DNA of 64,000 nucleotides from Candidatus Methylomirabilota bacterium (lineage in GTDB: Bacteria > Methylomirabilota > Methylomirabilia > Rokubacteriales > DASRDR01). Every line of letters begins with the position of its first letter. Position 1 is the stretch's first letter. Positions 4,601 to 33,606 of the stretch are shown here, piece by piece. The notes under the pieces are model-generated. The model was not told the DNA's origin, ran no database searches, and was given only the letters and a program-made list of their open reading frames with translations. The stretch lies in the NCBI GenBank assembly GCA_036005065.1, contig DASYQW010000161.1, positions 2,898 to 66,897 on the forward strand, given 5' to 3'. Both the position numbers and the translations under genes were made by a program.

Positions 4601-5343
<743 letters not shown>

Positions 5344-17115: not shown

Positions 17116-17642
17116 CCGGGAGTATCGCCGGACGGGCTGACCTGGCGGCGGTACACGTAGTAGCGGTCGGCGTGCTCGACGGCGCCGGTGGTGTCGACCC
17201 GCAAGAGCCGCCAGCCTCGCTCGAGCGACAGATCCTGATCGCTGAGCACGACGGCGCCCGGCGTGAGCCAGGGGTGAATGTGTGCCAGCACGAATTCAGG
17301 CAGCCGCTCGTCCTCCGAATCGCCGCGGCCGACGTCCAGATGAGCCAGGATGACGCGGCCGGTGAAGCGGCAGTGGAGGGCGGTATCGGCGAGCACCGCG
17401 TCGAACTCGCCGAGGTAGAGGTGATCGGCGGGCGGTCGGGAGCGCGGGTGACAGACATCGCGCCGGTCGAAGCAGAACACCTCCCGTCCCGGGAAGCGCT
17501 CCCGGAGATGGGAGTAAGAGCGCCCGGTGCCGAGGCCGAACTCGACGAGGACGCCGTCGGCCCCGGTCAGCCAGCTCGCGGCGAGGTTGATGCTGTCCCG
17601 CTTCGCGATCGACTGGCGGATATGGGAATCCAGGCGACTCAT
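17112..17642 (-). CDS. Class I SAM-dependent methyltransferase (small)
   Basis: Gly-rich SAM motif VLVEFGLGTGRS. 4-bp overlaps on both sides. Confidence 0.5.
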   Translation of the reverse strand: MSRLDSHIRQSIAKRDSINLAASWLTGADGVLVEFGLGTGRSYSHLRERFPGREVFCFDRRDVCHPRSRPPADHLYLGEFDAVLADTALHCRFTGRVILAHLDVGRGDSEDERLPEFVLAHIHPWLTPGAVVLSDQDLSLERGWRLLRVDTTGAVEHADRYYVYRRQVSPSGDTPG

Positions 17643-18877: not shown

Positions 18878-19473
18878 AGCGGCGTGAGCGGCTCGTTGAG
18901 TGTCACGAGCTGAAGGTGGCCATCGCCTCGCCGTCGGATGCGGTGGAGCCGGTCAGGCAGCAGGCGGAGCGGAGCCGGCGGCCTCAGGTCCCAGCCGATC
19001 GCCGCGGCGAGGAGGGCTCGGATGACGCCGCCGTGGGTGACGGCGGCCCACGTCTCGTGGCCGCGGCCGGCCGCGATCTCGTCGAGCCACGCCCGGACGC
19101 GGGCGAGAACCTCCGCCGGCGACTCCCCGCCGGGCGGTCTCGCGTCCCACCCCCCGCCCTCCGTGAGCGCGTCGATCTCGTCGAAGCTTCGCCCGTGCCA
19201 CGCCCCGTAGTGCATCTCGATGAGCCGCGCGTCGCGCACCGGCTGGCTCGCGCCCAGCCGGGCGGCGGTCGCCAGGGCCCGCTGCAGCGGACTCACGGCC
19301 CAGGCGAGCCGGCCGTCCGCATGAAGCCGCGCCAGGTCGGCCGGGAGTCGCCAGCGCGCGACCTGCGCCTCGCCGTCGGCCGACAGCGGCGGGTCCGCGT
19401 GGCCCAGGATGCGCCGCTCGGCCGTCCACGTCGTGGCGGCGTGGCGGATGAGGGCCACGTGCGTCGACCTCAC
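18874..19473 (-). CDS. Histidine phosphatase superfamily protein (phosphoglycerate-mutase-like)
   Basis: RHG catalytic motif in VALIRHAATTW…GHADPPLSADGEAQ. I place the start at a GTG overlapping the upstream glycosyltransferase stop (GTGA). The ORF-track 386-aa form has a low-complexity N-terminal extension that overlaps the glycosyltransferase in another frame. Confidence 0.6.
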   Translation of the reverse strand: MRSTHVALIRHAATTWTAERRILGHADPPLSADGEAQVARWRLPADLARLHADGRLAWAVSPLQRALATAARLGASQPVRDARLIEMHYGAWHGRSFDEIDALTEGGGWDARPPGGESPAEVLARVRAWLDEIAAGRGHETWAAVTHGGVIRALLAAAIGWDLRPPAPLRLLPDRLHRIRRRGDGHLQLVTLNEPLTPL

Positions 19474-20666
19474 GCTGGGGAGCCTGCCGGCACGCGACTC
19501 CCCAGCGAAAGACGGGCGAGGCCGTCCCGGAGCCGCCGGGTCCACGCCTCCATCGTCCGCTCGGCGGCGACGAAGGCGCGAGCGGCGTGCCCCATCTCGC
19601 GGCACCGGGCCGGGTCGTCCAGGAGCTGGGCGATTCCCGCGGCATAGGCGGCGGGTGTCGCGTCGGTCAGGAGGCCGCCGCCTGGCGCCACCATGAAGTC
19701 CGGGCCGGGTCCCCGGCAGGCCACCACGGGCAGCCCGGCGGCCGCCGCCTCCAGGTAGACGAGCCCGAGGGCGTCCCCGATTCCGGGGAAGGCGAAGAGG
19801 TCCGCCCCGAGATAGACAGCCGGCAGCGCCGCGGGCTCGAGCGCGCCGAGGAGGCACACCCGGTCCGCCGGCACGGCGGCCAGGACCGCCTCCACCGCGC
19901 GGCGGGCCGGCCCGTCCCCCACGACGACGAGATGCCACCGGCGGCCGGCACTCTCGCGCGAGAGCTCGGCGAGCGCCGCGGCGAGGAGTCGGTACGAATC
20001 GAGCTTGTCCGCCTCGCGCATCATGGCGACACACAACACGAGCGGGCCCTCCGTGGCAGGGATCCGACGGGCCAGCGCCGCCCGATGCCGCGCCCGGACC
20101 GTCTCACTCGCCGCGAATCGCGCGAGGTCCACGGCCGGGGGCAAGAGCAGCAGCCGCTCGGCCGCGAACCGCGGACCCCGGATCGCCGCCAGCCGCGGCA
20201 CGTCGCGCGGGCTCATGGCGAAGATGAGGTCCGCTCGCCGGACGGCGAGCCGGGCGGCGCTCACCCACGGGCGGAAGGGTGTCCGGCGGCTCGACGTCGA
20301 GAGCGCGGTGTCGACCAGGATGTACGGGAGGGCGAGGGCCGTCGCCACGGGGGGCCCGAGGAGGTCCGGGCACCGGGCGTAGTTCTGGTAGGTCATCCAG
20401 CAGCAGGGCTGCGCCGCGTGCGGCCGCCGCCGGTAGCGACGCACGAGCTGGGCCGCGACGAGGGCGGCCCGCCGCTCCAGCCGCACGGCGTCGGCGGGCT
20501 CGAAGCGGCGCCGCCAGCTCAGGAGCCGGCTCGCCAGCTCGGGCGCGAGGTCGCAGGCGGTGAGGCCCGCCATCAGCGCCCGCGCGATCTCGCGGTCGCC
20601 GGAGGCCTCGCCCTCGAACGGGTGTTTGAGCGGCGCGTAGAAGGCCGCCCGCCGCGCGTTGCTCAC
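19470..20666 (-). CDS. Glycosyltransferase family 4 (GT-B, group 1)
   Basis: C-terminal GT1 domain (…LVVVGDGPARRAVEAV…LLGALEPAALPAVYLGADLFAFPG…EAAAAGLPVVACRG). GTG start (VSNARRAAFYAPLKHPFEGEA) overlaps the upstream stop. The ORF-track 640-aa form includes a spurious N-terminal extension. Confidence 0.7.
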   Translation of the reverse strand: MSNARRAAFYAPLKHPFEGEASGDREIARALMAGLTACDLAPELASRLLSWRRRFEPADAVRLERRAALVAAQLVRRYRRRPHAAQPCCWMTYQNYARCPDLLGPPVATALALPYILVDTALSTSSRRTPFRPWVSAARLAVRRADLIFAMSPRDVPRLAAIRGPRFAAERLLLLPPAVDLARFAASETVRARHRAALARRIPATEGPLVLCVAMMREADKLDSYRLLAAALAELSRESAGRRWHLVVVGDGPARRAVEAVLAAVPADRVCLLGALEPAALPAVYLGADLFAFPGIGDALGLVYLEAAAAGLPVVACRGPGPDFMVAPGGGLLTDATPAAYAAGIAQLLDDPARCREMGHAARAFVAAERTMEAWTRRLRDGLARLSLGSRVPAGSPA

Positions 20667-21979
20667 GGCACCGGGACGCGGGTCGACCGCACCGGGGCGT
20701 CCTCGAGCCAGGGACTCAGGAGCGCGGTGAGGCGCCCGACCCCGGCCTCGAGGTCCCAGCCCTCGGCGACCCGCCGAATGCCGGCCGCACCGAGCCGCCG
20801 GCGCGTGGCCGGATCGGCCGCGAGACGGGCGAGCGCCGAGGCCAGCGCCGCCGGGTCCTCGGGCGGCACCAGGACGCCGTTCAGGCCGTCCTCCACGATT
20901 TCGCCGACGGCCGCCGCGCGGGTGGCCACGACCGGGAGGCCCTGGGAGAGCGCCTCCACCACGACGTTGGGCAACCCGTCTCGGTCGCCGTCCGCCGCGA
21001 CCCGCGGGGCGAGGACGAAGAGATCGCTCGTGCGGTAGAGCGCCCGGACGGCCGGATGGTCGAGCTGACCGAGCCAGCGGACGCGCGCCTCCAGGCCGAG
21101 GGCGCTCGTGAGGGACCGGAGGCTGGACTCGGCCGGCCCGTAGCCGACGAGCGTGAGGACCGCGTGCCCCGGCAGGCGAGCCAGGGCGCGCAGCACCAGG
21201 TCGAAGCCCTTCTTGGGCTGCAGCCGACCCACGGCGAGCAGCCGCACCGGGTCGTTCGCGTCGCGGCCGTCCCGCGGCGAGCCGAAGGTCGCCGGGGGCG
21301 CGAAGAAGGCGCGGTCGAGGCCGTGGTAGACGAGATCGACGCGCGCCTGGGGCATGAGGCGCCGGAGGTACTCCCGGTTCTCCGCGGTGCACGTCACGCA
21401 GAAGCGTGCCCCGGCGAGCTTCGCGCGGAGCTCCCAGGCCGGTCGCGTCCAGATGTCCTTGGCGTGGGCCGAGAGGCTGTAGGTGAGCCCGGCCATGGCC
21501 GCGGCGTACCGCGCCACCGAGGCCGGTGTGTGGAGGAAGTGCACGTGCATGTGGCGGGCCTCCGGCCAGAGCTCGGCGGCGAGGACTCCCGCCTGACCGA
21601 AGCGGCGCCCGCGGTTCGGTGTCGGGTCACGCGCGAGGTCGGAGAGCCAGAGGCGGAGGCTCCGGAGGTACCGCCCGGGGGCCCGTCGAAAGGCCTGCAG
21701 GTGGCCGCGCAGGACCCGCCGCGGGTCCTCGATCAGGTACTCGGGCAGGTAGAGGACCGGAGCCCGCACCTCGGCGTGGACCGGTTGGGTGATCCGGTCA
21801 TAGGGGCGGCGCAGCGAGACGATCGCCAGGGCGAACCCCCGGCGCTCGAGGGCGGCCAGCTCCTGCGCGACGAAGGTCTCGGAAACCCGCGGATAGCCCT
21901 TGACCACGACGACCAGCGGAGGGCGCGGCCCGAGGGCATCCCGTCGCTCAGACGACGGCGCGGCGCCACTCCTGTCCAT
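20663..21979 (-). CDS. Glycosyltransferase family 4 (GT-B, group 1)
   Basis: LVVVVKGYPRVSETFVAQE … GT1 C-terminal domain (EALSQGLPVVATRAAAVGEIVEDGLNGVLVPPEDPAALASAL). The annotated start overlaps the upstream gene by 32 bp, so the true start may be further downstream. Confidence 0.7.
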   Translation of the reverse strand: MDRSGAAPSSERRDALGPRPPLVVVVKGYPRVSETFVAQELAALERRGFALAIVSLRRPYDRITQPVHAEVRAPVLYLPEYLIEDPRRVLRGHLQAFRRAPGRYLRSLRLWLSDLARDPTPNRGRRFGQAGVLAAELWPEARHMHVHFLHTPASVARYAAAMAGLTYSLSAHAKDIWTRPAWELRAKLAGARFCVTCTAENREYLRRLMPQARVDLVYHGLDRAFFAPPATFGSPRDGRDANDPVRLLAVGRLQPKKGFDLVLRALARLPGHAVLTLVGYGPAESSLRSLTSALGLEARVRWLGQLDHPAVRALYRTSDLFVLAPRVAADGDRDGLPNVVVEALSQGLPVVATRAAAVGEIVEDGLNGVLVPPEDPAALASALARLAADPATRRRLGAAGIRRVAEGWDLEAGVGRLTALLSPWLEDAPVRSTRVPVP

Positions 21980-23228
21980 TCATCCGCCAGCGAGCGACCG
22001 TGGCATTGATCTGCTTGAGCCCGTTCAGCAAGCCGGGGATGCGGTGGCTGGCCGGGAGCGGCTGCTCCGGCAGATGGACGAGGGCCTCGGCGAGCGACTC
22101 GGGTGTGAGCCGATCGGGGTGGAGCATCTGGACGAGCCCGAGCTCGCGCGCCGCCTCGGCGCGGAGCAGCTGCTCGGCGCGAGGCGTGACACGGGGAACG
22201 ATCAGGGTCCGCTTGTTCAGCGAGAGCACCTCGCAGAACGTGTTGTAGCCGCCCAGGCAGACCACGGCGGCCGCCTTCTCCATCAGGTTCTCGAGGTGCT
22301 CGTGGAAGGTGAGGGTCATCACCCCGGGGAGCCGCGCAGCCCGCCGCTCGAAGGCGGCTCGCTGGCGGGTCGGCAGGAACGGGCCGTAGACGACCAGCGC
22401 CCGCCAGGGCAGTCGCCCGTCGAAGCGCTCGTAGGCGGCCAGGGTCGTGTCCACGAGGTCGGCGCCGTCCCCGCCGCCTCCCGGCGTGACGAGCACGAAG
22501 GGTCCCTTGTCGAGGGCCGCCGCCACGTCGGGGGGCAGGTACGCCTCGGGCTGGGGCTCGCGCTGGAGGTACCCCGTGAAGACGGTCTTGGCCGCCACGT
22601 CCGCCGGAAGCCCGTAGGCGCTGACTGGATCGTAGATCTGAGGGAGGCCATAGACCCAGATGTGGTCGTAGAGACGTTTGAGGGCGGGCATGACGCGCTT
22701 GCGCCGCCACTCCCGGGCCAGGAGGTCCGGGTCGTCCATGATGTCGCGGAGCCCCAGCACGAGGCGACAGCCGCCCCGCCGCTTGAGCAGCCGAAGGGTC
22801 TTGGCGACCTCGCCCAGGAGGCCCAGCGGCTCCTTGTCCACCAGGAAGAGGTGCGGGTCGAAGACCTGGGCGGTGTGCTCGATGATCGAGCCCCGGAGGG
22901 CGAGGGTGTGCTCGATGTCGACGTCCAGGCTCAAGCTCGTGTATTCCCCGTTTCGAAGCTTGATGATGCCTGGAACCCGGACGAAGTCCACCCGTGCCCG
23001 GAAGCTGAAGCGCCCGATGATCGGCGAGCCGCTGAGGATGAGGACGTTGAGCTTCTTGTGATGGCCCACCAGGGCGTGCGCGATGGCCCGGCAGCGCCGC
23101 AGGTGGCCGAGTCCGAAGGAGTCGTGGCTATAAATGAGGACGCGGTAGCTGGACCCCCGCGCGGCCGGCTCCGGCCGATGGCGGCCCCCATCCTCCGGCG
23201 CTCCGGCATTCGAGCGTGATGGCATCAC
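21948..23228 (-). CDS. Glycosyltransferase (MGT/GT28-like), first gene of the glycoconjugate cluster
   Basis: YSHDSFGLGHLRRCRAIAHAL N-terminal motif and a GT-B C-terminal half (VVCLGGYNTFCEVLS). Confidence 0.7.
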   Translation of the reverse strand: MMPSRSNAGAPEDGGRHRPEPAARGSSYRVLIYSHDSFGLGHLRRCRAIAHALVGHHKKLNVLILSGSPIIGRFSFRARVDFVRVPGIIKLRNGEYTSLSLDVDIEHTLALRGSIIEHTAQVFDPHLFLVDKEPLGLLGEVAKTLRLLKRRGGCRLVLGLRDIMDDPDLLAREWRRKRVMPALKRLYDHIWVYGLPQIYDPVSAYGLPADVAAKTVFTGYLQREPQPEAYLPPDVAAALDKGPFVLVTPGGGGDGADLVDTTLAAYERFDGRLPWRALVVYGPFLPTRQRAAFERRAARLPGVMTLTFHEHLENLMEKAAAVVCLGGYNTFCEVLSLNKRTLIVPRVTPRAEQLLRAEAARELGLVQMLHPDRLTPESLAEALVHLPEQPLPASHRIPGLLNGLKQINATVARWRMNGQEWRRAVV

Positions 23229-23587
23229 CCTCGCCCCGTCCTCCCTGTCCCCGCGACCCGTCGAGGGGGCCTCACGGGCCCCGAGGCGGACGACGGCCAG
23301 GGCCGACCGTCCCGCGAGGCCCCGACGGAAGCCCCCCGCATTTGCCTGCCTCCACGAGTCGTGCGGATGGTAGGATCGTATGCCGTATCACGATGGTCGA
23401 CAAGCGAGCGTCCGCGCCCTCCCCAGAGGGGCGCGAGCCCGTGGCGCCGGGCCGCGAGTCTCGAGTGGGCTCGGGACCCCGCCTACTATGTCACAAACCG
23501 AAGGGCAACAGAAGAGCCTGGCCAGGGGCGGTCGTGCCCGGGTCCGGGGGCCTTTCCTGAGGAACGGAGGAGTGGTACATCTCCCCC

Positions 23588-24601
23588 ATGGCTGAGCCTC
23601 TCCTCCGGGTCGAGGATCTGCGGACTTACATCTACCTGGATGAAGGGGTGGTCCGGGCCGTCAACGGGGTCTCCTTCACCTTGGACCGTGGTCAGACCAT
23701 GGCCATCGTGGGAGAGTCGGGCTCCGGCAAGACCGTGGTCGCCCAGTCGATCCTGCGCATCCTCCCCGACCGGGCCCGGATCGAGGGGGGGCGGGTCCTC
23801 TTTTCGGCGGACGGGAGCCCCCCGCTGGACCTGGTCGGGCTTCCCGCCAACGGGAAGGCGATGCGGGAGATCCGGGGGGGGTCCATCGCCATGGTCTTCC
23901 AGGAGCCCATGACGTCCTTCTCCCCGGTCCACACGATCGGCAACCAGATCGGGGAGGCGGTGCGCCTCCACCGGGGGGCCAGCCGGGCCGAGGCGCGGGC
24001 GGTCGCCATCGAGACGCTCCGAGCCGTGGGGTTTCCGGAGCCCGAGCGGAAGGTCGACAGCTACCCCTTCGAGCTCTCCGGGGGGCTGCGCCAGCGGGCC
24101 ATGATCGCCATGGCCCTGGCCTGCCGGCCGGCCCTGCTGATCGCCGACGAGCCGACCTCCGCGCTCGACGTCACGATCCAGGCCCAGATCCTGGACCTCT
24201 TGCTGGCGCTGCAGAAGGAGTCGGGGATGGGCCTCCTGCTCATCACCCATGACCCCGGCGTGGTGGCCTACGTCGCCGATCTCGTCACCGTGATGTACTG
24301 TGGCAAGATCATGGAGACGGGTCCCGTCAGCACCCTGTTCGACAATCCCCGGCACCCGTACCTCCAGGCCCTGCTCCGGAGCACGCCTCACTTCGGGATC
24401 CCCGAGGGGGAACGGCTCGAGGCGATCGCCGGGACCGTGCCCGACCCACTCTCGATGATCCGGGGCTGCCCGTTCCTCTCGCGGTGTCCCGAAGGGGAAC
24501 CGGAGCTGTGTGGGCGGACGATGCCGGCGCTCACGCCCCTGGCGCCGGACCATCACGTGGCCTGCTACAAGCGGGGGTCGCCGCCGGAGGCGGAAGCGTG
24601 A
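23588..24601 (+). CDS. Oligo/dipeptide ABC transporter ATP-binding protein (OppD/DppD-like)
   Basis: Walker [17 protein letters not shown] signature, and a C-terminal oligopeptide-transporter extension with Cys residues ([15 protein letters not shown]). Confidence 0.85.
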
Positions 24602-24650
24602 GGGGGCTCGGGCCGCGGCCCGTCGCCTCTCGGCGTCCGCAGGTGTCCCG

Positions 24651-25760
24651 GTGACCCGGAACGGCGGCGGGCGCGCGACGGTCGAGGCGGGGCAGACCCC
24701 CGCGCGCCCTTCTTCGCCCGGGCCGCTCCTGACCGTGCATGATCTCACCAAGCACTTTGCCCTCTACCAGCCCTGGCTGCTGGGCCTCGCCCGCCGGCGG
24801 GTCGGGACGGTCAAGGCGGTGGAAGAGGTGAGTTTCGCGCTCCAGCGCGGGGAGACCCTGGGGCTGGTGGGTGAGTCCGGCTGCGGGAAGACCACGACCG
24901 CCCGGCTCATCCTGCGCGCGATCCGGCCCACCCGGGGCGAGATCCTCTTCAATCTCGACGGCAACGTGGTGCGGGTAGACCAGCTCGAGGGCAAGGCGCT
25001 GCGGGCCTTGCGCCGGCACATCCAGCTGATCTTTCAGGACCCCTTCTCCTCGCTCAATCCGCGCATGCCGGCCGGGGAGATCATCGCCGAGCCGTTGAAG
25101 CTCCATCAGGCCGGGTCCCCGGCCCAGATCACCGAGCGGGTGAAGGCGCTCATGGCGATGGTCGGGCTCGACGTCCAGTATCTCCGCCGTTACCCGCACT
25201 CCTTCTCGGGCGGCCAGCGCCAGCGGATCGGCATCGCGCGGGCGCTGGCCCTGAACCCCGAGCTGATCGTCTGCGACGAACCGGTGTCCGCCCTCGACGT
25301 GTCGATCCAGGCCCAGGTGCTGAACCTCCTCAAGGATCTCCAGGCCGAGCTCGGCCTGACCTATCTCTTCATCTCGCACAACCTCGCCGTCGTGGACTAT
25401 GTGGCCGATCGCGTCGCCGTGATGTATTCGGGGCGGATCGTCGAGCTGGCCGGCAAGCGCGAGCTCTTCGCGCGCCCCCGGCATCCGTACACCGAGGCTC
25501 TGCTGGCCGCCGTCCTCCAACCCGACCCGAAGCTCCGCCCCGACCACGCGGCCCTGGGGGATGGCCAGGTGATCGAGGCCCCGGTGGAGGGGTGCCCCCT
25601 CGCCCCCCGGTGCCGCTACGCCGTCGAGCGGTGCCAGATCGAGGATCCGCCACTCCGCGAGGTCGAGCCGGATCACTGGGTCCGGTGCCATCGGGTCGAC
25701 GAGATCCGGCTCGCGCCGCTCCTGAGGCGGCCCCGTCTCACGCAGGAGAAATCGGCATGA
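24651..25760 (+). CDS. Oligo/dipeptide ABC transporter ATP-binding protein (OppF/DppF-like)
   Basis: GESGCGKTT, FSGGQRQRIGIARAL, LIVCDEPVSALD, and a C-terminal CPLAPRCRYAVERC. Start uncertain: GTG 24651 (alternative GTG 24735), no ATG available. Confidence 0.8.
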   Translation: MTRNGGGRATVEAGQTPARPSSPGPLLTVHDLTKHFALYQPWLLGLARRRVGTVKAVEEVSFALQRGETLGLVGESGCGKTTTARLILRAIRPTRGEILFNLDGNVVRVDQLEGKALRALRRHIQLIFQDPFSSLNPRMPAGEIIAEPLKLHQAGSPAQITERVKALMAMVGLDVQYLRRYPHSFSGGQRQRIGIARALALNPELIVCDEPVSALDVSIQAQVLNLLKDLQAELGLTYLFISHNLAVVDYVADRVAVMYSGRIVELAGKRELFARPRHPYTEALLAAVLQPDPKLRPDHAALGDGQVIEAPVEGCPLAPRCRYAVERCQIEDPPLREVEPDHWVRCHRVDEIRLAPLLRRPRLTQEKSA

Positions 25761-27661
25761 TCGAGCGAAGGCTGGGGTGGTTCATCGGGCTGGTCGGAGT
25801 CGGGCTGGCCGCGGCCGCCGCGGCCGCCCCCGGGAGCGCCCCTCCCGAGCCGCCCTCCCTGGCGGCCCGCGCGGCATCGGGCGAGCTCCCGCCGCTCGCC
25901 CGGCGGCTGCCGGAGCATCCGATGGTGGTGACGACGGCGGCGGAAGCCGCCTATGGCGGCGAGCTGCGGACGCTCATCGGGACGCCCAAGGACCTGAAGC
26001 TCGCCTTCGTCTACGGCTACGCCCGCCTGGTCCGGTTCAATCACCGCTATCAGATCGTTCCCGACATCGCCGAGCGGGTCGACGTGGCGGAGGGGCGCAC
26101 GTTCACGTTCCACCTGCGCAAGGGGCACCGCTGGTCGGACGGGACGCCGTTCACCAGCGCCGATTTCCAGTACTGGTGGGAGCACGTCGCCAACAACAAG
26201 GAGCTGTCCCCCGGGGGGCCGCCGGCGCTTCTCCTGGTGGATGGGGAGTTGCCGCGCGTGGAGTTCCCGGACGCGCAGACCGTGCGGTTCAGCTGGTCCA
26301 AGCCCAACAACCTCTTCCTGCTGGACCAGGCCGGCGCGGCGCCGACGATCCTCTATCGGCCGGCCCACTACCTCAAGCGGTTCCACAAGGCCTTCGCCGA
26401 CGCCGAGAAGCTGGCCGCGCAGGCCAAGCAGGAGCGGCGGCGGAGCTGGGCCGGGCTCCACAACGCGCGCGACGCCCTCTACGTGATGGACAATCCCGAG
26501 CTGCCGACCCTCCAGCCGTGGAAGCCCACGGTGGCGCCGCCCGCCGAGGTGTTCCACGCCGAGCGCAACCCCTACTTCCACCGGGTCGACCAGCGCGGGC
26601 GGCAGCTCCCGTACATCGACCGCCTCAAGATGATCCTGGCCGACAAGGCGGTCATCCCGGTCAAGGCGTCCACGGGGGAAACCGACCTTCAGGCGCGCTA
26701 CCTGACGTTCGACCAGTACACGTTTCTCAAGCGGAACGAGCAGCAGGCTGGCTATCGGGTGTACCTCTGGTCGACGGCCGCCAGCGCCGCCGTCGCCCTC
26801 TACCCGAACCTCACGACCGGCGACCCCGTGATGCGGAAGCTGCTCCAGGACCGGCGCTTCCGTCAGGCGCTGTCCCTGGGCATCGATCGGGAGGAGATCA
26901 ACAAGATCCTCTACTACGGCTTCGGCACCATCGGCCAGAACACCGTCCTCCGGAGCCCGGCCTCCCACGAGGACACTCGCATGGCCTACGCCCGGTTCGA
27001 TCCCGCCCAGGCCAACCGGCTCCTCGACGAGCTGGGGCTCAAGGGGCGCGACGCGAAGGGTTTCCGGCTGCGCCCCGACGGCCAGCGCCTGGACGTCATC
27101 GTGGAGACCGCGGGCGAGTCCACCGAGCAGACCGACGTGCTGGAGCTGGTGGCGGACACCTGGGCCCAGCTCGGCGTCGAGCTCCTGATCCGGCCGACTC
27201 AACGGGAGATTTTCCGGCGCCGGGTCTTCTCCGGCGAGGCGATGATGAGCATCAGCAACAGCGACCTGTTCGGGCTCCCCACGCCCGACATGAGCCCGAG
27301 CTGGCTGGCGCCCGTGGCCGAGGAGCAGCTCCAGTGGAGCCGCTGGGGCGTGTATTTCGAGACGAAGGGCAAGCGCGGGGAGGCTCCCGAGCTGCCGTCG
27401 GCCCGCCGGCTGGTCGAGCTGTACCGGCGGTGGCTCGTCTCGACCGAGCGCGCCGAGCGGGAGCGGGTCTGGGGCGAGATGCTCGACATCAACGCGGAAG
27501 AGGTGTTCACGATCGGGATCCTGGGGGGCACCCTCCAGCCGGTCGTCGTGGCCAACGGCCTCCGCGGCGTGCCGGAGAAGGGCATCTACGCCTGGGACCC
27601 CGGCGCCCACTTCGGGATCCACAGCCCGGACACGTTCTACTGGCAGGGGGGCCGTCCGTGA
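25757..27661 (+). CDS. ABC transporter substrate-binding protein, family 5 (peptide/nickel type), 634 aa
   Basis: Signal peptide, then an SBP_bac_5-like sequence. ATG overlaps the preceding stop (ATGA) and has an AGGAGAA RBS. Confidence 0.85.
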   Translation: MIERRLGWFIGLVGVGLAAAAAAAPGSAPPEPPSLAARAASGELPPLARRLPEHPMVVTTAAEAAYGGELRTLIGTPKDLKLAFVYGYARLVRFNHRYQIVPDIAERVDVAEGRTFTFHLRKGHRWSDGTPFTSADFQYWWEHVANNKELSPGGPPALLLVDGELPRVEFPDAQTVRFSWSKPNNLFLLDQAGAAPTILYRPAHYLKRFHKAFADAEKLAAQAKQERRRSWAGLHNARDALYVMDNPELPTLQPWKPTVAPPAEVFHAERNPYFHRVDQRGRQLPYIDRLKMILADKAVIPVKASTGETDLQARYLTFDQYTFLKRNEQQAGYRVYLWSTAASAAVALYPNLTTGDPVMRKLLQDRRFRQALSLGIDREEINKILYYGFGTIGQNTVLRSPASHEDTRMAYARFDPAQANRLLDELGLKGRDAKGFRLRPDGQRLDVIVETAGESTEQTDVLELVADTWAQLGVELLIRPTQREIFRRRVFSGEAMMSISNSDLFGLPTPDMSPSWLAPVAEEQLQWSRWGVYFETKGKRGEAPELPSARRLVELYRRWLVSTERAERERVWGEMLDINAEEVFTIGILGGTLQPVVVANGLRGVPEKGIYAWDPGAHFGIHSPDTFYWQGGRP

Positions 27662-27688
27662 CCACGCCGGTCCCGGGGTAGGCCGGCC

Positions 27689-28687
27689 ATGCTCCGCTAT
27701 CTCGTTCAGCGAGTGCTCCTGATGATTCCGACGCTCCTGGCCATCTCCATCCTCACCTTCGTGATCATCCAGCTTCCCCCGGGGAACTACCTGGACACGC
27801 TCATCAGCGAGCTGCGGTCGGCCGGCGAGACGGCGGACCTTCAGAAGATGGAGTTCCTCCGGAAGCAGTACGGCCTCGATCAGCCGGTCTGGATGCAGTA
27901 CTGGATCTGGCTCCGGGGCCTCTTCCACGGCGACCTGGGCTATTCGTTCGAGTACGACCGGCCGGTCACGGCGATCATCGGGGAGCGCCTGGCCCTCACC
28001 TTCGTCGTCTCGTTCGGGGCCATCTTATTCACCTGGCTGGTCGCGTTCCCCATCGGCGTCTACTCGGCGACGCACCAGTACAGCTGGGGGGACCACGGCC
28101 TGACCTTCCTGGGCTTCCTGGGGCTGGCCACCCCCAACTTCCTACTAGCCCTCGTGCTGATGTTCGTCTCGTTCACCTGGTTCGGGGTGAGCGTGGGAGG
28201 TCTCTTCTCGCCCGACCTCCAGGAAGCCCCCTGGGGCTGGGCCAAGATCGTCGACCTGCTCGAGCACCTGTGGATCCCCGTGGTGGTGATCGGCACCGCC
28301 GGCACCGCCGGGATGATCCGTCGCCTCCGGGCCAACCTCCTCGACGAGCTCAAGAAGCAGTACGTCGTGACCGCGCGGGCCAAGGGGCTTCCGCCCGGGC
28401 GGCTGCTCGTCAAGTACCCGCTGCGCATCGCCCTGAATCCCTTCATCAGCGACATCGGCAACCTGCTGCCGGAGGTGGTCTCGGGGTCGGTCATCGTCTC
28501 GATCGTGCTGTCGCTGCCCACGACCGGCCCCATGCTGCTGCGCGCGCTCCGAACCCAGGACATGTACCTGGCCGGCTCCTTCCTCATGCTGCTGGCCTCC
28601 CTCACCGTGCTGGGGGTCTTCCTGTCGGACCTGGCGCTGGCCGCGCTGGATCCGCGGATTCGCCAGGGCGCCGAGCGCAGCCGATGA
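27689..28687 (+). CDS. Peptide ABC transporter permease (OppB/DppB-like)
   Basis: Six-TM BPD_transp_1 permease; MLRYLVQRVLLMIPTLLAISILTFVIIQL is a typical OppB N-terminus. Confidence 0.85.
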   Translation: MLRYLVQRVLLMIPTLLAISILTFVIIQLPPGNYLDTLISELRSAGETADLQKMEFLRKQYGLDQPVWMQYWIWLRGLFHGDLGYSFEYDRPVTAIIGERLALTFVVSFGAILFTWLVAFPIGVYSATHQYSWGDHGLTFLGFLGLATPNFLLALVLMFVSFTWFGVSVGGLFSPDLQEAPWGWAKIVDLLEHLWIPVVVIGTAGTAGMIRRLRANLLDELKKQYVVTARAKGLPPGRLLVKYPLRIALNPFISDIGNLLPEVVSGSVIVSIVLSLPTTGPMLLRALRTQDMYLAGSFLMLLASLTVLGVFLSDLALAALDPRIRQGAERSR

Positions 28688-29823
28688 GCGTGCCGGTGGT
28701 GATCGCGGCGCCCGCCCCGGACGTGCGGACGCTGACCCCCGAGCAAGAGCGCTACTACCTCGCTTCCCAGTGGCAGCTCATCTGGTGGCGCCTCCAGAAG
28801 CATCGGCTGGCCATGGCGGCGCTCTGGTTCCTGGTGGCGTTCTACGCCATCATCCCGTTCGTCGAGTTCCTGGCGCCCTACGCGCTGCGGACGCGGCATG
28901 CGGACTACGTGTACTTCCCGCCCCAGCGGGTGCACGTCTTCCACGACGGGCGGCTGGTCGGGCCGTTCGTGTATGGCCACGTCATGACCATCAACATGGA
29001 GACCCTCAAACGGGAGTACCGTGAGGACTTCACCCGGCGCTACCGGGTCCGGCTCCTCGCCGAGGGCGAGCCCTACGCCTTCCTGGGTCTGTGGCAGGCC
29101 CGCGTGCATCTCTTCGGGTCGGAGGAGGGCGGGACGCTGTTCCTGCTCGGGACCGATCGGCTCGGGCGCGACATGCTCTCGCGAATCCTCCACGGCGCCC
29201 GGATCTCGCTCACGGTGGGACTGGTGGGGATCTCGGTGAGCTTCGTCCTGGCGCTGATCTTCGGCGGACTGTCGGGATACTACGGCGGCAAGGTGGACAT
29301 CGTCATCCAGCGCCTGATCGAGGTGATCCGATCGTTCCCCGAGCTTCCGCTCTGGATGGCGCTCTCCGCCGCGCTGCCGGCCCGCCTGGAGCCGATCCTC
29401 GTCTACGTGGGCATCACGATCATCCTGGGCATCATCGACTGGACCGGGCTCGCCCGGAGCATCCGCGGCAAGCTTCTCTCCCTGCGGGAGGAGGACTTCG
29501 CCACCGCGGCGCTTCTGATGGGGGGCTCGCCGGCCTACGTGATCCGCCGGCATCTGCTGCCGGCCTTCACCAGCCATCTCATCGTCTCCGCCACGCTGAG
29601 CATCCCTCGGATGATCCTGGGGGAGACCGCCCTGAGCTTCCTGGGCCTCGGCCTGCGGTCGCCGATCACGAGCTGGGGCGTGCTTCTCACCGAGGCTCAG
29701 AACATGAACGCCGTCGCCCTCTATCCCTGGCTGATGGCGCCGGTCGTGGCCGTCGTCCTGACGGTGCTCGCCTTCAACTTCCTGGGCGACGGCCTCCGCG
29801 ACGCCGCCGATCCGTACGCGTGA
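28684..29823 (+). CDS. Peptide ABC transporter permease (OppC/DppC-like)
   Basis: ATG 28684 overlaps the OppB stop. OppC-like TM core (…GTDRLGRDMLSRILHGARISL…). Confidence 0.85.
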   Translation: MSVPVVIAAPAPDVRTLTPEQERYYLASQWQLIWWRLQKHRLAMAALWFLVAFYAIIPFVEFLAPYALRTRHADYVYFPPQRVHVFHDGRLVGPFVYGHVMTINMETLKREYREDFTRRYRVRLLAEGEPYAFLGLWQARVHLFGSEEGGTLFLLGTDRLGRDMLSRILHGARISLTVGLVGISVSFVLALIFGGLSGYYGGKVDIVIQRLIEVIRSFPELPLWMALSAALPARLEPILVYVGITIILGIIDWTGLARSIRGKLLSLREEDFATAALLMGGSPAYVIRRHLLPAFTSHLIVSATLSIPRMILGETALSFLGLGLRSPITSWGVLLTEAQNMNAVALYPWLMAPVVAVVLTVLAFNFLGDGLRDAADPYA

Positions 29824-29901
29824 TGGGAATCTGGCGGCGCTGCCGACGATATCCCGAGTCGACGAAGAGGGGACCCTCCCCTCCGGCTGGAGCGTAACCG
29901 G

Positions 29902-32460
29902 ATGGAAACCAATCTCTATCGCTACATCATCCGACGGAGCCTCAGGCACCAGCTCATCCTGATCGCCATCATCTTCGTGCTGGCGTTCCTGAACCCCTGG
30001 ATGTTGTCCCTGACGAAACAGATCATCAACAAGGCCATCGGGAAGGGCGACCTGGGCGCGCTGGTGTGGCTGTGCACGCTGTTCCTGGGGGCCGTGCTGG
30101 CCTCGGGGGCGCTCAAGTACGTCAAGCAGAACATGGAGGGGCTGATCTCGGAGCGGATGCTGCGGAACCTGCGGAGCGAGCTGTACGAGCGGATCCTGCG
30201 CTTCCCGCTGCCGCATTTCCGGAACACCTCGACGGGACAGCTGGTGGCCATGATCCTGGGCGAGGTGGAGGACCTCGGCAACTTCTTCGGTGAAGCCCTC
30301 TCGATCCCCGCGTTTCAGGGCTCCATGCTGATCGGCACGCTGGCGTTCATGGTGTATCAGAACCCCTGGATGGCCCTGGCCGGCATGGCGCTGTTCCCCG
30401 TCCAGGTCTGGCTGGTTCGGAAGCTCCAGCGCCGCGTCACCCAGCTCTCGCGCGAGCGGGTCCGGCTGGTGCGGGGGCTCTCCGACAAGATCCAGGAGTC
30501 GGTCGGGAGCATCCAGGAGATCTACGTCCACAACACGCTGGCCTACGAAGCCACCGGTTTCCGGGGCCAGCTCCGGCGGATCTTCAAGGTGCGGCTCCGG
30601 ATCTACAACCTCAAGTACCTGGTCAAGTGGATCAACAACTTCCTGGAGAAGTTCGGGCAGTTTGTCCTCCTCCTCCTCGGGGGGTGGCTGATCATCACGC
30701 GACCGGACCTCTTCGACGTCGGCAGCCTGGTGGCCTTCCTGCAGGCCTACAACCAGCTGAACGAGCCGTGGCGGGAGCTCATCAACTACTTCCAGCAGAA
30801 GGAGAACGCGCGCGTCAAGTACGAGCAGGTCATCCTCAACTTCGACGTGCCGGGCATCCGGCCGGAGTTCCCGCTGGAGGAGCGCCTCCCGGAGCCGGTG
30901 CCGAAGCTGGCCGGCGCCTACGACGTCCGCGGCGCCACCGTGCTGCTGGACGGCTCAGTCAAGGCCCTCGACCAGATCAAGCTGGCCACGCCGCCCCACG
31001 AGCACGTGGCCATCGTGGGGACGGCCGGCAGCGGGAAGTCGACCCTGGCCCTGGTGCTGGCCAAGCTCTACGGCTACACGGGCACCGTCTTGCTCGACAA
31101 CGTTGAGCTGGCCCAGATCCCCTCGGCGGTGGCCGGTCGCCAGATGGCCTACGTGGGCAGCGAGGCCCGGCTGTTCACCGGCACCGTGCTCGACAACGTG
31201 GTGTATGGCCTCCGTCACCGGCCGGGTACCGGCGACGCCCGGCCGGACTCGGACGACTGGCTCGATCTCTCTCCGCTGGGGGTGTCGGATCGGGCGGGGC
31301 TGGTGGCCGCCGTCCTCGAGTCGGCCCGGGTGGGGAGGTTGGACGACGACCTCTTCGCGCTCGGTCTCCGGTCGACCATCGATCCGGCGAAGCAGCCGGA
31401 GATCGCCGCCCGGCTCCTCACCGCCCGCCGGCTGGTGGCGGAGCGCTTCGCCCGCGAGGGGGGCGAGCCGGCCATCGAGTTCTTCGACCGGGAGCGCTTC
31501 GCGACCTACGCGTCCATCGGCGAGAACATCCTGTTCGGGCACAGCGCGGTCCCGGCCCTCGCGCTGGAGCGACTGCCCGCCAGCGAATACTTCCTGCGGG
31601 TCATTACCGAGGTCGAGCTGCGAGCGCCACTGCTGACGCTGGGCGCCGAGATCGCCAGGGAGACGGTCGAGATCTTCAAGGACATCGCGCCCGACAACGA
31701 GCTGTTCGCCAACTTCAGCTTGATCACCGCCAGCGAGCTCCCGGAGTACACCCGGCTGGTCTCGCGCCTGGACGGAGGCCCGCCGGACGGGTTGCCCGCC
31801 GAAGATCAGGAACGACTGATCGCGCTTTCCCTTCGGCTCATCCCGGCTCGCCACCGACTGGGCCGCGTCGACGAGGCGTTCATGGCCAAGATCGTCCTGG
31901 CCCGGCGGCGCTTCGCCGAGACCTTGCCGCCCATGCTGGCCGAGACCTTCGCGCCCTACGACCGCGAGCGGTATTTCGCGGACGGCACCCTGCTGGAGAA
32001 CATGCTGTTCGGAAAGGTCGTGGCCACCAGCAGCCTGGCCGTCAAGCGCGTCAACGCCATCGTCGAGGAGGTGATCACCGCTCATGGCCTGCGCGACGTC
32101 GTGATGGAAGCGGGACTGGGCTATCACGTCGGGCTCTTCGGCAGCCGGCTGTCCCCCGCCCAGCGCCAGAAGGTGGCGCTGACGCGGGCCCTGCTCAAGC
32201 GGCCGCACATCCTCATCATGGACCAGGCGGTGAGCGTCCTGGAGGGGGACAAGCGCGGCGAGGTCCACCAGCGGGTCACGGCCGCCATGAAGGGGCGAAC
32301 GATCATCGCCGTCGTCGACCGGCTGGACCTGGCCCGGTACTACGATCGGGTGGCGGTGCTCGACGCGGGCAAGGTCGCGGAGTTCGGGACCTACCAGGAA
32401 CTCGTGACGCAGGGAAGCCTGTTCCGTCAACTCGCGGTCCAGGCCGGGGTCACGGCCTGA
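29902..32460 (+). CDS. Atypical ABC exporter-like half-transporter (TMD plus degenerate NBD with ~290-aa insertion), 852 aa
   Basis: The N-terminal ~330 aa is a 6-TM ABC exporter domain. Walker A (VGTAGSGKST) is intact. The Q-loop Gln is replaced (YVGSEA). There is a ~290-aa insertion between the Q-loop and signature motifs containing repeated (L)F.G(T)(V/L)L(D/E)N…FG segments. The signature LSGGQ is replaced by LSPAQ, Walker B hhhhDE by ILIMDQ, and the H-loop His by Asp (VDRL). Confidence 0.75.
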   Translation: METNLYRYIIRRSLRHQLILIAIIFVLAFLNPWMLSLTKQIINKAIGKGDLGALVWLCTLFLGAVLASGALKYVKQNMEGLISERMLRNLRSELYERILRFPLPHFRNTSTGQLVAMILGEVEDLGNFFGEALSIPAFQGSMLIGTLAFMVYQNPWMALAGMALFPVQVWLVRKLQRRVTQLSRERVRLVRGLSDKIQESVGSIQEIYVHNTLAYEATGFRGQLRRIFKVRLRIYNLKYLVKWINNFLEKFGQFVLLLLGGWLIITRPDLFDVGSLVAFLQAYNQLNEPWRELINYFQQKENARVKYEQVILNFDVPGIRPEFPLEERLPEPVPKLAGAYDVRGATVLLDGSVKALDQIKLATPPHEHVAIVGTAGSGKSTLALVLAKLYGYTGTVLLDNVELAQIPSAVAGRQMAYVGSEARLFTGTVLDNVVYGLRHRPGTGDARPDSDDWLDLSPLGVSDRAGLVAAVLESARVGRLDDDLFALGLRSTIDPAKQPEIAARLLTARRLVAERFAREGGEPAIEFFDRERFATYASIGENILFGHSAVPALALERLPASEYFLRVITEVELRAPLLTLGAEIARETVEIFKDIAPDNELFANFSLITASELPEYTRLVSRLDGGPPDGLPAEDQERLIALSLRLIPARHRLGRVDEAFMAKIVLARRRFAETLPPMLAETFAPYDRERYFADGTLLENMLFGKVVATSSLAVKRVNAIVEEVITAHGLRDVVMEAGLGYHVGLFGSRLSPAQRQKVALTRALLKRPHILIMDQAVSVLEGDKRGEVHQRVTAAMKGRTIIAVVDRLDLARYYDRVAVLDAGKVAEFGTYQELVTQGSLFRQLAVQAGVTA

Positions 32461-32472
32461 GGGACGACAGCG

Positions 32473-32925
32473 ATGCAGCCGCTAGAACGAGACGTCGAGA
32501 CCCTGCGCAACATCCCCCTGTTCGCCGGCCTGCCGACGGCGCGGCTCAAGCTCATCGCCTACACGGCCGAAGTCGTACGCTTCGAGCCCGGCGAGGTGAT
32601 CGTGCAGCAAGGCGACGCGGCCGATGCCGTGTACATCATCGCCGAGGGCGAGGCCGAGGTGTGGCTCACCGACGCCGACAGCCACCGCCTGCTCCTGCGG
32701 ACCATGGGGCCCCACAGCCTGTTCGGGGAGACGGCCGTGCTGTGCAAGCGGCGACGGACGGCCACCGTGAAGGCCAAGGATCGCGTGGTGACATTCAAGA
32801 TCTCGGCCCAGCTGTTCCTCGACCTCGTGCGCCAGAGCCCGGAGATCGGGATGCAGGTGATGACGGTGCTGGCCGAGCGCCTGGAGAGCAGCACCGCCCT
32901 CTTGCAGCAGCACGACCGCCACTGA
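32473..32925 (+). CDS. Standalone cyclic-nucleotide-binding (cNMP/CAP effector) domain protein, 150 aa, no DNA-binding domain
   Basis: LRNIPLFAGLP…FEPGEVIVQQGD…FGETAVL…RRTATVKA. Its start lies 13 nt after the ABC gene stop. Confidence 0.8.
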   Translation: MQPLERDVETLRNIPLFAGLPTARLKLIAYTAEVVRFEPGEVIVQQGDAADAVYIIAEGEAEVWLTDADSHRLLLRTMGPHSLFGETAVLCKRRRTATVKAKDRVVTFKISAQLFLDLVRQSPEIGMQVMTVLAERLESSTALLQQHDRH

Positions 32926-33010
32926 GTGAGTTTCGGAGGGGGTGTCGGAACACCCCCTCCGAGGCCTCCCCCAAGAATCGTGGCGGCGGCAAAGCCGCCG
33001 CTCGGAGCGG
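32923..33010 (+). repeat. Double-hairpin intergenic repeat, subfamily 2, copy C (begins at the TGA stop of the cNMP-binding gene)
   Basis: TGAGTGAGTTTCGGAGGGGGTGTCGGAACACCCCCTCCGAGGCCTCCCCCAAGAATCGTGGCGGCGGCAAAGCCGCCGCTCGGAGCGGGACATCC. Perfect 12-bp stem CGGAGGGGGTGT/ACACCCCCTCCG plus a GGCGGCGGC-AAA-GCCGCCGC stem. Confidence 0.55.
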
Positions 33011-33150
33011 GACATCCAGGCCGCCGCGTGCTCGAGCGAGCGCGAGGGCCGTGCTGAGTTCAACCGGAGGCTCCGCGGTGGCGACTCCGTCGGCGGCCGC
33101 CTCTCCTGGGCCGGGTGTGGGAGGGAGCCGTGGGGACTCCCTCGCGGGAT

Positions 33151-33606
33151 CTACGGCCGCTCGACGATATCGGTCTTCAGGGTCCCGAGGAGCGCCAGCA
33201 CCTCGCCCTTTTCCTTCTCCGGCACCTTGAACTTCTCGAGGGTCGCCACCAGGTGGTTCACCGCGATGGTCCAGTCCCGCTCCGAGATCCCCGACCCGGC
33301 GTGGGAGGCTTTCATGGTGCGCCCGGTGTAGATGCAGGGCCCGCCCGTCGCCGCGCAGAGCTGGTCGACCACGTGCTGGCGGATCCGGGTCTTGGAGTCC
33401 GTGCTGAACACCTCGAAAAAGCGGCGGAGCTGGGGGTCGCCGACGAGGCGCCCGATGAACTCGTCCACCACGGCGGCGATCGCGTCGTATCCGCCCAGCC
33501 GCTTGTAGAGAGTGTCGGCGGACTGGGCCGACACGCTCGGCGCCAGGGAGGCCACCGTCAACAGAGCGACGAGGGTGAAGCCGATGCAGAGAGCACGGAT
33601 CCGCAT
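33151..33606 (-). CDS. Truncated haemoglobin (group I 2/2 Hb) with an N-terminal Sec signal peptide
   Basis: trHbN hallmark LYKRLGGYDAIAAVVDEFIGRLVGDPQLRRFF and the proximal-His region MKASHAGSGISERDW. Signal peptide MRIRALCIGFTLVALLTVASLAPSVSA. Confidence 0.75.
   Translation of the reverse strand: MRIRALCIGFTLVALLTVASLAPSVSAQSADTLYKRLGGYDAIAAVVDEFIGRLVGDPQLRRFFEVFSTDSKTRIRQHVVDQLCAATGGPCIYTGRTMKASHAGSGISERDWTIAVNHLVATLEKFKVPEKEKGEVLALLGTLKTDIVERP

Follow-up and report, generated by a model that had tools for sequence, protein, structure and literature searches.

ATP-binding cassette (ABC) exporters are textbook ATP-driven pumps, and each of the natural exceptions, among them the CFTR channel, the SUR regulator and SbmA/BacA, which lack a nucleotide-binding domain (NBD), has been very informative. 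In CFTR and SUR1/2 (ABCC7 and ABCC8/9), nucleotide binding to an exporter fold gates or regulates, one site is degenerate, and a second messenger provides an input (protein kinase A/cAMP for CFTR). SbmA/BacA, which are grouped with Rv1819c, are type IV exporter-fold homodimers whose function does not require ATP hydrolysis, and they are found in the same rhizobia that carry members of the family described below. Large insertions between the Q-loop and the signature motif, the same topological point as in that family, are found in the SMC/Rad50 and UvrA ABC ATPases. In a literature search on bacterial ABC exporters that are degenerate or linked to cyclic nucleoside monophosphate (cNMP)-binding domains, HetC alone was found, as the closest characterised cNMP-coupled case; its cNMP-type domain is N-terminal, lies beside a C39 peptidase and binds ppGpp in vitro, and its catalytic Glu, E970, is essential (PMC10986499). 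Here we describe ABC-ins, the 852-aa product of a gene with an ATG start at positions 29902-32460 (+ strand) of a 64,000-nucleotide stretch of contig DASYQW010000161.1 from a Candidatus Methylomirabilota bacterium, the whole of which is hereafter called the window. Alignments indicate that this exporter-fold half-transporter has lost the residues needed for ATP hydrolysis, profile comparisons and structure prediction that the helical subdomain of its NBD is triplicated, and its gene is followed directly by that of a stand-alone cNMP-binding protein.

Domain architecture and the triplicated helical subdomain

By fold and domain content, ABC-ins is a type IV ABC half-transporter. The transmembrane domain (TMD; aa 1-315, 29902-30846, + strand) has the six long helices of the type IV exporter fold: Pfam places ABC_membrane (PF00664) at aa 19-289 with an E-value of 1.6e-33 (117 bits against a cut-off of 28), and an AlphaFold2 (AF2) model puts the helices at residues 5-46, 51-98, 123-146, 160-202, 213-266 and 288-314. 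The Walker A motif, GTAGSGKST (G373-T381; 31018-31044, + strand), is intact and matches the canonical GxxGxGKST. Pfam, the AF2 helices and the alignments thus agree with an earlier note on this DNA, which had described a six-helix TMD and a canonical Walker A. The ABC_tran match (PF00005; 63 bits against a cut-off of 25) is split in two, with profile positions 1-80 on aa 356-449 and the remainder aligned near the C-terminus. NCBIfam exporter models (MsbA, HlyB, CydD, NdvA and others) align to aa 13-438 and then to aa 699-850, and all of them score the protein far under their own cut-offs. Mean pLDDT (the confidence score of AF2) was 82.9 for the model of the whole protein, whose best Foldseek matches were MsbA, TM287/288 and TmrAB, with Rv1273c/72c also close. 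The insertion modelled alone was mostly helical and confidently predicted (pLDDT 81.7).

The excess over a canonical NBD amounts to 262 residues (aa 437-698; 31210-31995, + strand) between the Q-loop and the signature. The earlier note had reported an insertion of about 290 residues at roughly residues 450-740; the insertion itself stands, with the size and place corrected to those given here. We conclude that the NBD runs from a Walker A half through three tandem units, each made of a strand, a Q-loop, a helical subdomain and a signature-type helix, to a Walker B half. Unit 1 (aa 413-522; 31138-31467, + strand), delimited by alignment to ABCB Q-loop regions and by hhalign, consists of a strand, the Q-loop-like VGSEA, the segment TVLDNVVYG, helices and a signature-like helix, DPAKQPEIAARLL. 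Unit 2 (aa 523-680; 31468-31941, + strand), delimited by hhalign, contains IEFFDRERFATYASIGENILFG, helices, an extra helical elaboration that the comparison with unit 3 places at about aa 585-640, and LRLIPARHRL. The LIPARHRL motif within the latter is near-invariant, and its ARHR (A649-R652; nt 31846-31857) sits at a signature-like position. Unit 3 (aa 681-768; 31942-32205, + strand), placed by NCBIfam and PDB alignments, holds FAPYDRERYFADGTLLENMLFG, the helical subdomain and the degenerate signature LSPAQ (nt 32149-32163). The same two kinds of alignment set aa 699-850 on the canonical C-terminal half of an NBD, and the Walker B half itself occupies aa 769-852 (32206-32457, + strand).

The three units were compared by profile-profile alignment with hhalign, using profiles derived from a 64-sequence family alignment. 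Units 2 and 3 matched with a probability of 97.7% (E 1.3e-12, 62 columns), units 1 and 2 with 86% (E 4.7e-6, 85 columns), and units 1 and 3 with 53% (E 1.4e-4, 80 columns); the last of these alignments sets DPAKQPEIAARLL against the signature helix LSPAQRQKVALTRALL. A shallower alignment of 18 sequences gave a weak repeat signal only, with probabilities of at most 53%. The three ENxxxG segments, MAYVGSEARLFTGTVLDNVVYG, IEFFDRERFATYASIGENILFG and FAPYDRERYFADGTLLENMLFG, share a common 22-residue layout. Profile-profile comparison and fold prediction agree that the insertion adds two diverged copies of the helical subdomain to the one expected in an NBD, giving three tandem units in all. This agrees with the proposal of the earlier note that extra partial copies of the post-Q-loop segment are present, and rules out a foreign domain.

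A known accessory domain was also looked for. A Pfam scan of aa 437-735 gave no match even at an E-value of 10, an insertion profile found no relative among PDB sequences, and no solved ABC structure among the fold-search matches carries the insertion. No description of a triplicated helical subdomain, or of the ABC-ins family, was found in the literature, in the Pfam and NCBIfam models or among solved structures, and no precedent for such a triplication has been described in the literature that we searched.

Loss of catalytic residues

The motifs of ABC-ins were called by residue-by-residue alignment to solved ABCB proteins. In the Q-loop, VGSEA stands in place of the canonical VSQEP, with Ser420 replacing the Gln. 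The signature reads LSPAQ instead of LSGGQ. In Walker B, LIMDQA replaces LLLDEA, so that Asp774 is present and the catalytic Glu has become Gln775, in the context ILIMD774-Q775. The D-loop is SVLE rather than SALD, and in the H-loop, VDRL rather than AHRL, the His position is taken by Asp806. The earlier note had listed the replacements in the Q-loop, the signature, the Walker B Glu and the H-loop His; each was recovered in these alignments, in which no motif proved to be misassigned and the canonical catalytic residues are absent.

With Walker A and Walker B both present, the domain classes as an ABC-type NBD, and by every sequence test applied it falls outside the catalytically competent ABC ATPases. 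As judged from these alignments, ABC-ins has lost the residues needed for ATP hydrolysis. ATP binding is probably still retained by the protein in this organism, since both Walker A and Asp774 of Walker B are preserved.

Extent and conservation of the family

An independent metagenome contig encodes a protein 100% identical to ABC-ins. Metagenome-assembled genomes (MAGs) of Rokubacteria, NC10 and Methylomirabilis contain more than 120 homologues that share 65-80% identity with it, all of them about 850-870 aa long. The N-terminus (METNLYRYI in ABC-ins, and kept), the insertion and the substituted motifs each align across these close homologues. Altogether, more than 1,300 homologues keep the architecture. 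With the insertion alone as the query, 689 cluster representatives were recovered at E≤1e-3 and 425 at E≤1e-10; most of the best 150 insertion matches listed were 800-1200 aa long or fragments, and each of the nine insertion matches scanned with Pfam showed ABC_membrane, an ABC_tran match in two pieces and the insertion in the same position. A profile search combined with a genome scan gave at least 507 species-level matches and widened the range of the family to numerous Alphaproteobacteria, where the carriers include Sneathiella, Thalassobaculum, Oceanibacterium, Geminicoccaceae, Stellaceae and Rhodospirillaceae. The family is also present in 247 plasmid or chromid records (144 from Rhizobium and 80 from Sinorhizobium), including S. 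meliloti pSymB. Database entries label its members generically as 'ABC transporter ATP-binding protein/permease', and the family, large and conserved as it is, is apparently undescribed.

Two S. meliloti strains differ in the state of the gene. On pSymB of strain ml28 (L083, 7403-10152) it comprises two open reading frames (ORFs) of 154 and 762 aa in different frames, with no coding sequence (CDS) annotated in PLSDB, and strain RCAM1750 has an intact gene for a protein of 903 aa. A frameshift, pseudogene formation or a sequencing error might explain the split in ml28.

Residue conservation was counted either in 69 full-length representatives or in a 64-sequence alignment of closer homologues, A3. 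The ATP-site residues decay among the 69 representatives: the Walker A Lys is kept in 24, the Walker B Asp in 19, the catalytic Glu in 21 and the H-loop His in about five. In the insertion of the same proteins, N542 is kept in all 69, G546 in 68, R652 in 65, H651 in 60 and R650 in 54, and the motifs ENxLFG (unit 2) and ARHR, both present in the window protein, are nearly invariant and a hallmark of the family. Within the Rokubacteria clade, Lys379 together with Ser/Thr380 is found in 14 of 14 sequences, and the Walker B Asp is invariant. The position that follows this Asp is occupied in the window clade by Q, E, D, R, G, M or N, the H-loop position by D, E, K or N, and the Q-loop position by S, A, P or G. 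In the S. meliloti copy, GGTSGGGEAL replaces the Walker A sequence, and the Walker A Lys is missing.

Positions 775 and 806 thus drift in the window clade, and the alignments point to no new conserved catalytic residue in their place. The earlier note had asked whether the insertion and the E-to-Q and H-to-D substitutions are conserved among homologues: the insertion is, whereas the substituted positions vary within the clade. Because these positions vary freely and ATP-site residues decay across the family, hydrolysis appears to be dispensable. Between the two main clades, identity was 43% in the TMD, 39% in unit 2 and 33-36% in the other parts of the NBD, making the TMD the best-conserved region and unit 2 the best-conserved part of the NBD. 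We take the conservation of the TMD to argue that a membrane function has been retained. The pattern as a whole indicates constraint on the membrane domain and the insertion, and not on ATP chemistry.

Association with a cNMP-binding protein and a cyclase

A stand-alone 150-aa cNMP-binding protein (32473-32925, + strand; Pfam cNMP_binding, PF00027, E 1.5e-22) is encoded immediately downstream of ABC-ins, as the earlier note had observed; its gene starts 12 nt past the ABC-ins stop. The note had also suggested that the co-occurrence of the two genes be examined, and the link proved to be strong. Complete 10-kb flanks were available for 51 genome loci, and in every one (51/51) the next gene after the ABC gene encodes a cNMP_binding protein of about 150 aa. 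Among 149 representatives, 28 have the cNMP domain as a C-terminal fusion on the ABC protein, and every one of the 18 that reach at least 1000 aa belongs to these. The domain being a downstream neighbour in some lineages and a fused part in others, this is the classic fusion/fission signature, which on genomic grounds argues for direct physical cooperation between the two proteins. In P0170 (1156 aa) and P0218 (1206 aa), a GGDEF domain follows the fused cNMP domain, which hints at cross-talk with cyclic di-GMP.

The phosphate-binding cassette of the partner protein, FGETAVLCKRRRTATV, has the canonical G-E-x-A ... R-[ST]-A pattern and agrees with the cNMP-contacting residues of CRP-type domains. 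Across 81 loci, G85 is kept in 81, E86 in 78, R95 in 81, T96 in 76 and A97 in 79.

A class III adenylate/guanylate cyclase with FHA and GAF domains (14719-16275, + strand; Pfam Guanylate_cyc, E 2.8e-32, with GAF and FHA) lies at the edge of the gene cluster in the window. In S. meliloti a cyclase adjoins the cluster too (QND29307.1), and at the loci L024, L029, L033 and L081 a cyclase gene comes immediately after the cNMP gene. A cyclase is found next to the cluster in three different arrangements; at L025 and L066 the cyclase match lies elsewhere.

The surrounding gene cluster

Upstream of ABC-ins on the same strand, Pfam identified an Opp-type ABC importer (23588-29823, +), in accordance with the earlier placement of the gene at the end of a peptide-importer operon. 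It consists of two OppD/F-like ATPases (23588-24601 and about 24600-25760), an SBP_bac_5 substrate-binding protein (in the frame of 25592-27661; E 5e-54) and OppB/C permeases (27689-28687 and about 28700-29823). An ORF of 634 aa (25777-27681, +) overlaps the substrate-binding protein gene in another frame and has no Pfam match; the SBP_bac_5 frame is the real gene.

A divergent set of biosynthetic genes occupies 16318-23228 on the - strand, assigned by Pfam and NCBIfam. From the importer outwards, they encode a GT28-C-like glycosyltransferase (21948-23228), a GT4 glycosyltransferase (20663-21979), a second GT4 (19470 to about 20699), a CobC-like histidine phosphatase (18874 to about 19470), a second GT28-C-like protein (17639-18877), a Methyltransf_17 protein (17112-17642) and a 265-aa protein without a family (16318-17115). 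The genes of the cluster, upstream and divergent, are common to Rokubacteria, Oceanibacterium and most alphaproteobacterial loci, and S. meliloti pSymB also has the cluster. At the 51 loci, which belong to Alphaproteobacteria and Rokubacteria, we found the two GT28-C-like genes (copies a and b) in 44 each, GT4 in 50, the histidine phosphatase in 41, Methyltransf_17 in 35, the 265-aa protein in 41, and the OppD- and OppF-like ATPases in 44 and 42, respectively. These counts cover one GT4; the second is present in the window and in Oceanibacterium. NCBIfam gave only generic GT4, MurG-like and CobC-like similarity, under the cut-offs, for the enzymes of the cluster. The combination of GT4, a phosphatase, further glycosyltransferases and a methyltransferase suggests that a small methylated glycoside or oligosaccharide may be made in the cytoplasm.

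No second ABC_membrane-like sequence was detected in the 64-kb window, and no second ABC_membrane gene in two loci with called genes or in the S. meliloti cluster; nor was a separate exporter for the cluster product present in the loci whose gene content was inspected. A scan of 23000-33600 for promoters and terminators gave counts no higher than in shuffled sequences, and a paper on the Clr regulon does not mention the cluster.

Several further features were noted. Two contigs of the MAG Thalassobaculum sp. G1-WW12-27 (L022 and L031) each carry a complete cluster with the ABC, cNMP, glycosyltransferase, phosphatase, Methyltransf_17 and OppDF genes, so that either the genome has paralogous clusters or the bin is mixed. 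The dihydrolipoamide acyltransferase E2 gene that precedes the cyclase in the window (13233-14654, +; Biotin_lipoyl, E3_binding and 2-oxoacid_dh), a short way upstream, is probably an unrelated housekeeping gene. A weak NBD-like tblastn match to the Walker A region at 4607-4777 (32% over 57 aa, E 2.5e-4) presumably marks a separate ABC ATPase, one without an ABC_membrane-like partner.

Functional interpretation

The reading that we favour, to which we assign a probability of about one half, is that ABC-ins does not hydrolyse ATP and serves, under the control of cNMP, as an export conduit or a regulator for the glycoside of the cluster. The protein probably works as a homodimer, which is the most economical arrangement because no second ABC_membrane gene exists in the window or the cluster. 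For such an assumed homodimer, the motif comparisons support the earlier proposal of two non-hydrolytic ATP sites, and the protein may be, as also proposed there, regulatory or channel-like rather than a pump.

In the mechanism that we envisage, the FHA-GAF cyclase would make cAMP or cGMP locally, and the 150-aa cNMP-binding protein would sense it. The sensor, which other lineages carry fused to the C-terminus of the NBD, would dock on the enlarged pseudo-NBD and control NBD closure or association, and hence the opening of the transmembrane pathway. ATP would be bound by ABC-ins but not hydrolysed at a useful rate. The cargo, let out via the TMD, would be a small glycoside or oligosaccharide produced by the adjacent GT4, GT28-like, phosphatase and methyltransferase enzymes, and the Opp-type importer could recapture the product or take up a precursor.

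A number of points weigh against this interpretation. An E-to-Q mutation in ABC proteins prevents neither ATP binding nor closure, and slow turnover persists in some natural degenerate NBDs. A single protein among the 69 representatives, P0209 (845 aa), has ATPase motifs that are canonical throughout (SGSGKST, the Q-loop Gln, LSGGQ, DEAT and AHR) and yet carries the insertion (33% identity, E 8.5e-29). P0209 is a candidate for a catalytically active, ancestor-like form, and because this canonical protein carries the insertion, the insertion probably predates the decay of the ATP sites. Alphaproteobacterial members keep the catalytic Glu in 30 of 50 cases and the His in 20 of 50, and they often pair Lys/Arg-Asp/Glu in Walker A with Asn-Glu in Walker B. 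An acidic Walker A residue at position 380 occurs in 37 sequences of A3, none of which (0/37) has the Walker B Asp774, whereas Rokubacteria combine Lys-Ser/Thr with Asp. Such a swap of a Walker A acidic residue for the Walker B Asp could preserve a metal site, and some members may hydrolyse ATP; the pattern is confounded with phylogeny and may reflect a single phylogenetic event. Domains of the cNMP type can bind other ligands, as with ppGpp and HetC (PMC10986499). Finally, the cargo is a guess from the gene neighbourhood.

One alternative is an ATP-driven exporter, in which an unconventional active site has acquired compensating residues and the cNMP protein only tunes the rate. We regard this alternative as unlikely, although less so than the others. 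Possible compensators are the invariant Arg-His-Arg of unit 2, whose ARHR stands at a signature-like position, or the acidic Walker A residue of the alphaproteobacterial clade. Such an exporter would be in keeping with the intact Walker A and Walker B Asp of the window protein, with the alphaproteobacterial exchange of Walker A Ser/Thr for Asp/Glu alongside Walker B Asp for Asn, with the Glu and His retained there, with the canonical P0209, and with the signature residues Ser751 and Gln754, which are kept in 56/64 and 62/64 sequences of A3. It is opposed by the free drift of the positions of the catalytic Glu and the H-loop His in the window clade, where no conserved substitute has arisen, by the loss of the Walker A Lys in 45 of the 69 representatives, S. 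meliloti included, and by the signature, since LSGG is found in P0209 alone among the 69.

Slightly less likely, in our estimation, is a membrane signalling or scaffold protein that transports nothing and relays the cNMP signal to the glycosyltransferases or to the Opp importer, much as SUR regulates Kir6.2. This would account for ATP sites that are degenerate across the family, for the tight coupling to a signalling domain, to which some members add GGDEF, and for a gene that is always co-encoded with the enzymes and the importer. A precedent for a non-transport role in a biosynthetic cluster is provided by the CesCD ABC proteins, which are reported to tether the cereulide synthetase (PMC7527721). 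The TMD, as the best-conserved region, fits a retained translocation pathway better than a scaffold, and the inspected loci offer no separate exporter for the product.

We judge it improbable that ABC-ins is one half of a heterodimer whose competent partner is encoded elsewhere, as in TM287/288, TmrAB or BmrCD. Natural ABC exporters with degenerate sites are usually heterodimers, and Foldseek places the model near TM287/288, TmrAB and Rv1273c/72c. Against this, the window and the conserved cluster contain no second ABC_membrane gene, and the Walker B/H-loop side and the signature side of ABC-ins are both degenerate, so that pairing with a canonical partner would still leave both composite sites impaired. 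The idea that the gene is decaying or is an assembly artefact (pseudogene, frameshift fusion or chimeric contig), for which the two unannotated ORFs of S. meliloti ml28 might speak, is refuted by the conservation data, namely a frame intact over 852 aa, the identical protein on an independent contig, the more than 120 homologues of about 860 aa at 65-80% identity, the 689 representatives with the insertion, and an insertion more conserved than the other parts of the NBD.

The favoured reading, a cNMP-controlled conduit or regulator that does not hydrolyse ATP, would have wider consequences. Hundreds of sequence clusters of this family occur in soil, marine and plant-associated bacteria, in which the fold and the enlarged NBD are kept and the residues for hydrolysis are drifting. 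The family would amount to a natural test of what an NBD does without hydrolysis when hard-wired to a cyclic-nucleotide sensor, and a rare bacterial case of direct cNMP control over a membrane transport protein other than an ion channel. The conserved cluster of glycosyltransferases, phosphatase, methyltransferase and importer points to a small glycoside; if secreted as proposed, it might be a signal or a metallophore-like compound that the Opp-type importer recaptures. As members are carried on S. meliloti pSymB and many Rhizobium plasmids, the system is genetically tractable and possibly relevant to symbiosis. More speculatively, and with a good deal of doubt, the family could represent a new class of the ABC fold, distributed from Rokubacteria to rhizobial symbiosis plasmids, in which second-messenger control replaces hydrolysis, the pseudo-NBD docks a cNMP receptor, and the TMD forms a cNMP-gated glycoside conduit.

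Comparison with known ABC systems

The best sequence and fold matches of ABC-ins are homodimeric type IV exporters of the MsbA/ABCB group (TIGR02203; PDB 3b5w and others), with which it shares a six-helix ABC_membrane domain followed by one NBD. It differs from them in that the NBD is interrupted by 262 residues and the Q-loop Gln, LSGG, catalytic Glu and H-loop His are replaced. With TIGR02203 it scored 252 bits in a split match against a cut-off of 602, outside the MsbA equivalog, and it also fell below the NCBIfam equivalog cut-offs for HlyB and NHLM.

The heterodimeric exporters TM287/288, TmrAB, BmrCD and Rv1273c/72c are close in fold and likewise have natural substitutions of the Glu, the His and the signature. 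They are encoded by two adjacent genes and have one consensus site, whereas ABC-ins is the product of a single gene, with both site halves degenerate and the helical subdomain triplicated. Assignment to this group as an exporter with one degenerate site was rejected, as no adjacent gene for a second half-transporter was found in the window, in the loci with called genes or in S. meliloti.

HetC and the NHLM-type peptidase-containing exporters (TIGR03797) are likewise ABC exporters in which physical coupling to a cNMP_binding-type domain is needed for function (PMC10986499). Unlike HetC, ABC-ins has lost the ATPase residues, and its partner domain, with a canonical cNMP cassette, is C-terminal or a separate protein. 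ABC-ins is also without an N-terminal extension, its TMD starting at aa 5, and it scored 180 against a cut-off of 853 with TIGR03796 and 172 against 709 with TIGR03797.

The likeness to CFTR and SUR is one of functional analogy only. These are eukaryotic proteins with two TMDs and two NBDs, with an R domain or TMD0 and one catalytic site, and their regulatory parts are not homologous to those of ABC-ins. SbmA/BacA have no NBD, whereas ABC-ins keeps an enlarged and conserved pseudo-NBD. In each of these cases the resemblance is functional and does not amount to family membership. SMC/Rad50 and UvrA are soluble, active proteins, and their insertions form coiled coils or modules that bind zinc and DNA; in ABC-ins, a membrane protein, the insertion appears to be a duplicated helical subdomain.

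The S. meliloti homologue of ABC-ins (QND29298.1) is not MsbA2 (SMb21191), which is a protein of canonical length (597 aa) encoded at about 941 kb on pSymB, some 95 kb away from the homologue at 841.7-845.0 kb. MsbA2 is an ABC exporter encoded in a glycosyltransferase operon of pSymB, and mutants that lack it are impaired only if they retain intact glycosyltransferases next to it (PMC12239276). The genetics of MsbA2 thus offers a useful precedent for an exporter of a cluster product.

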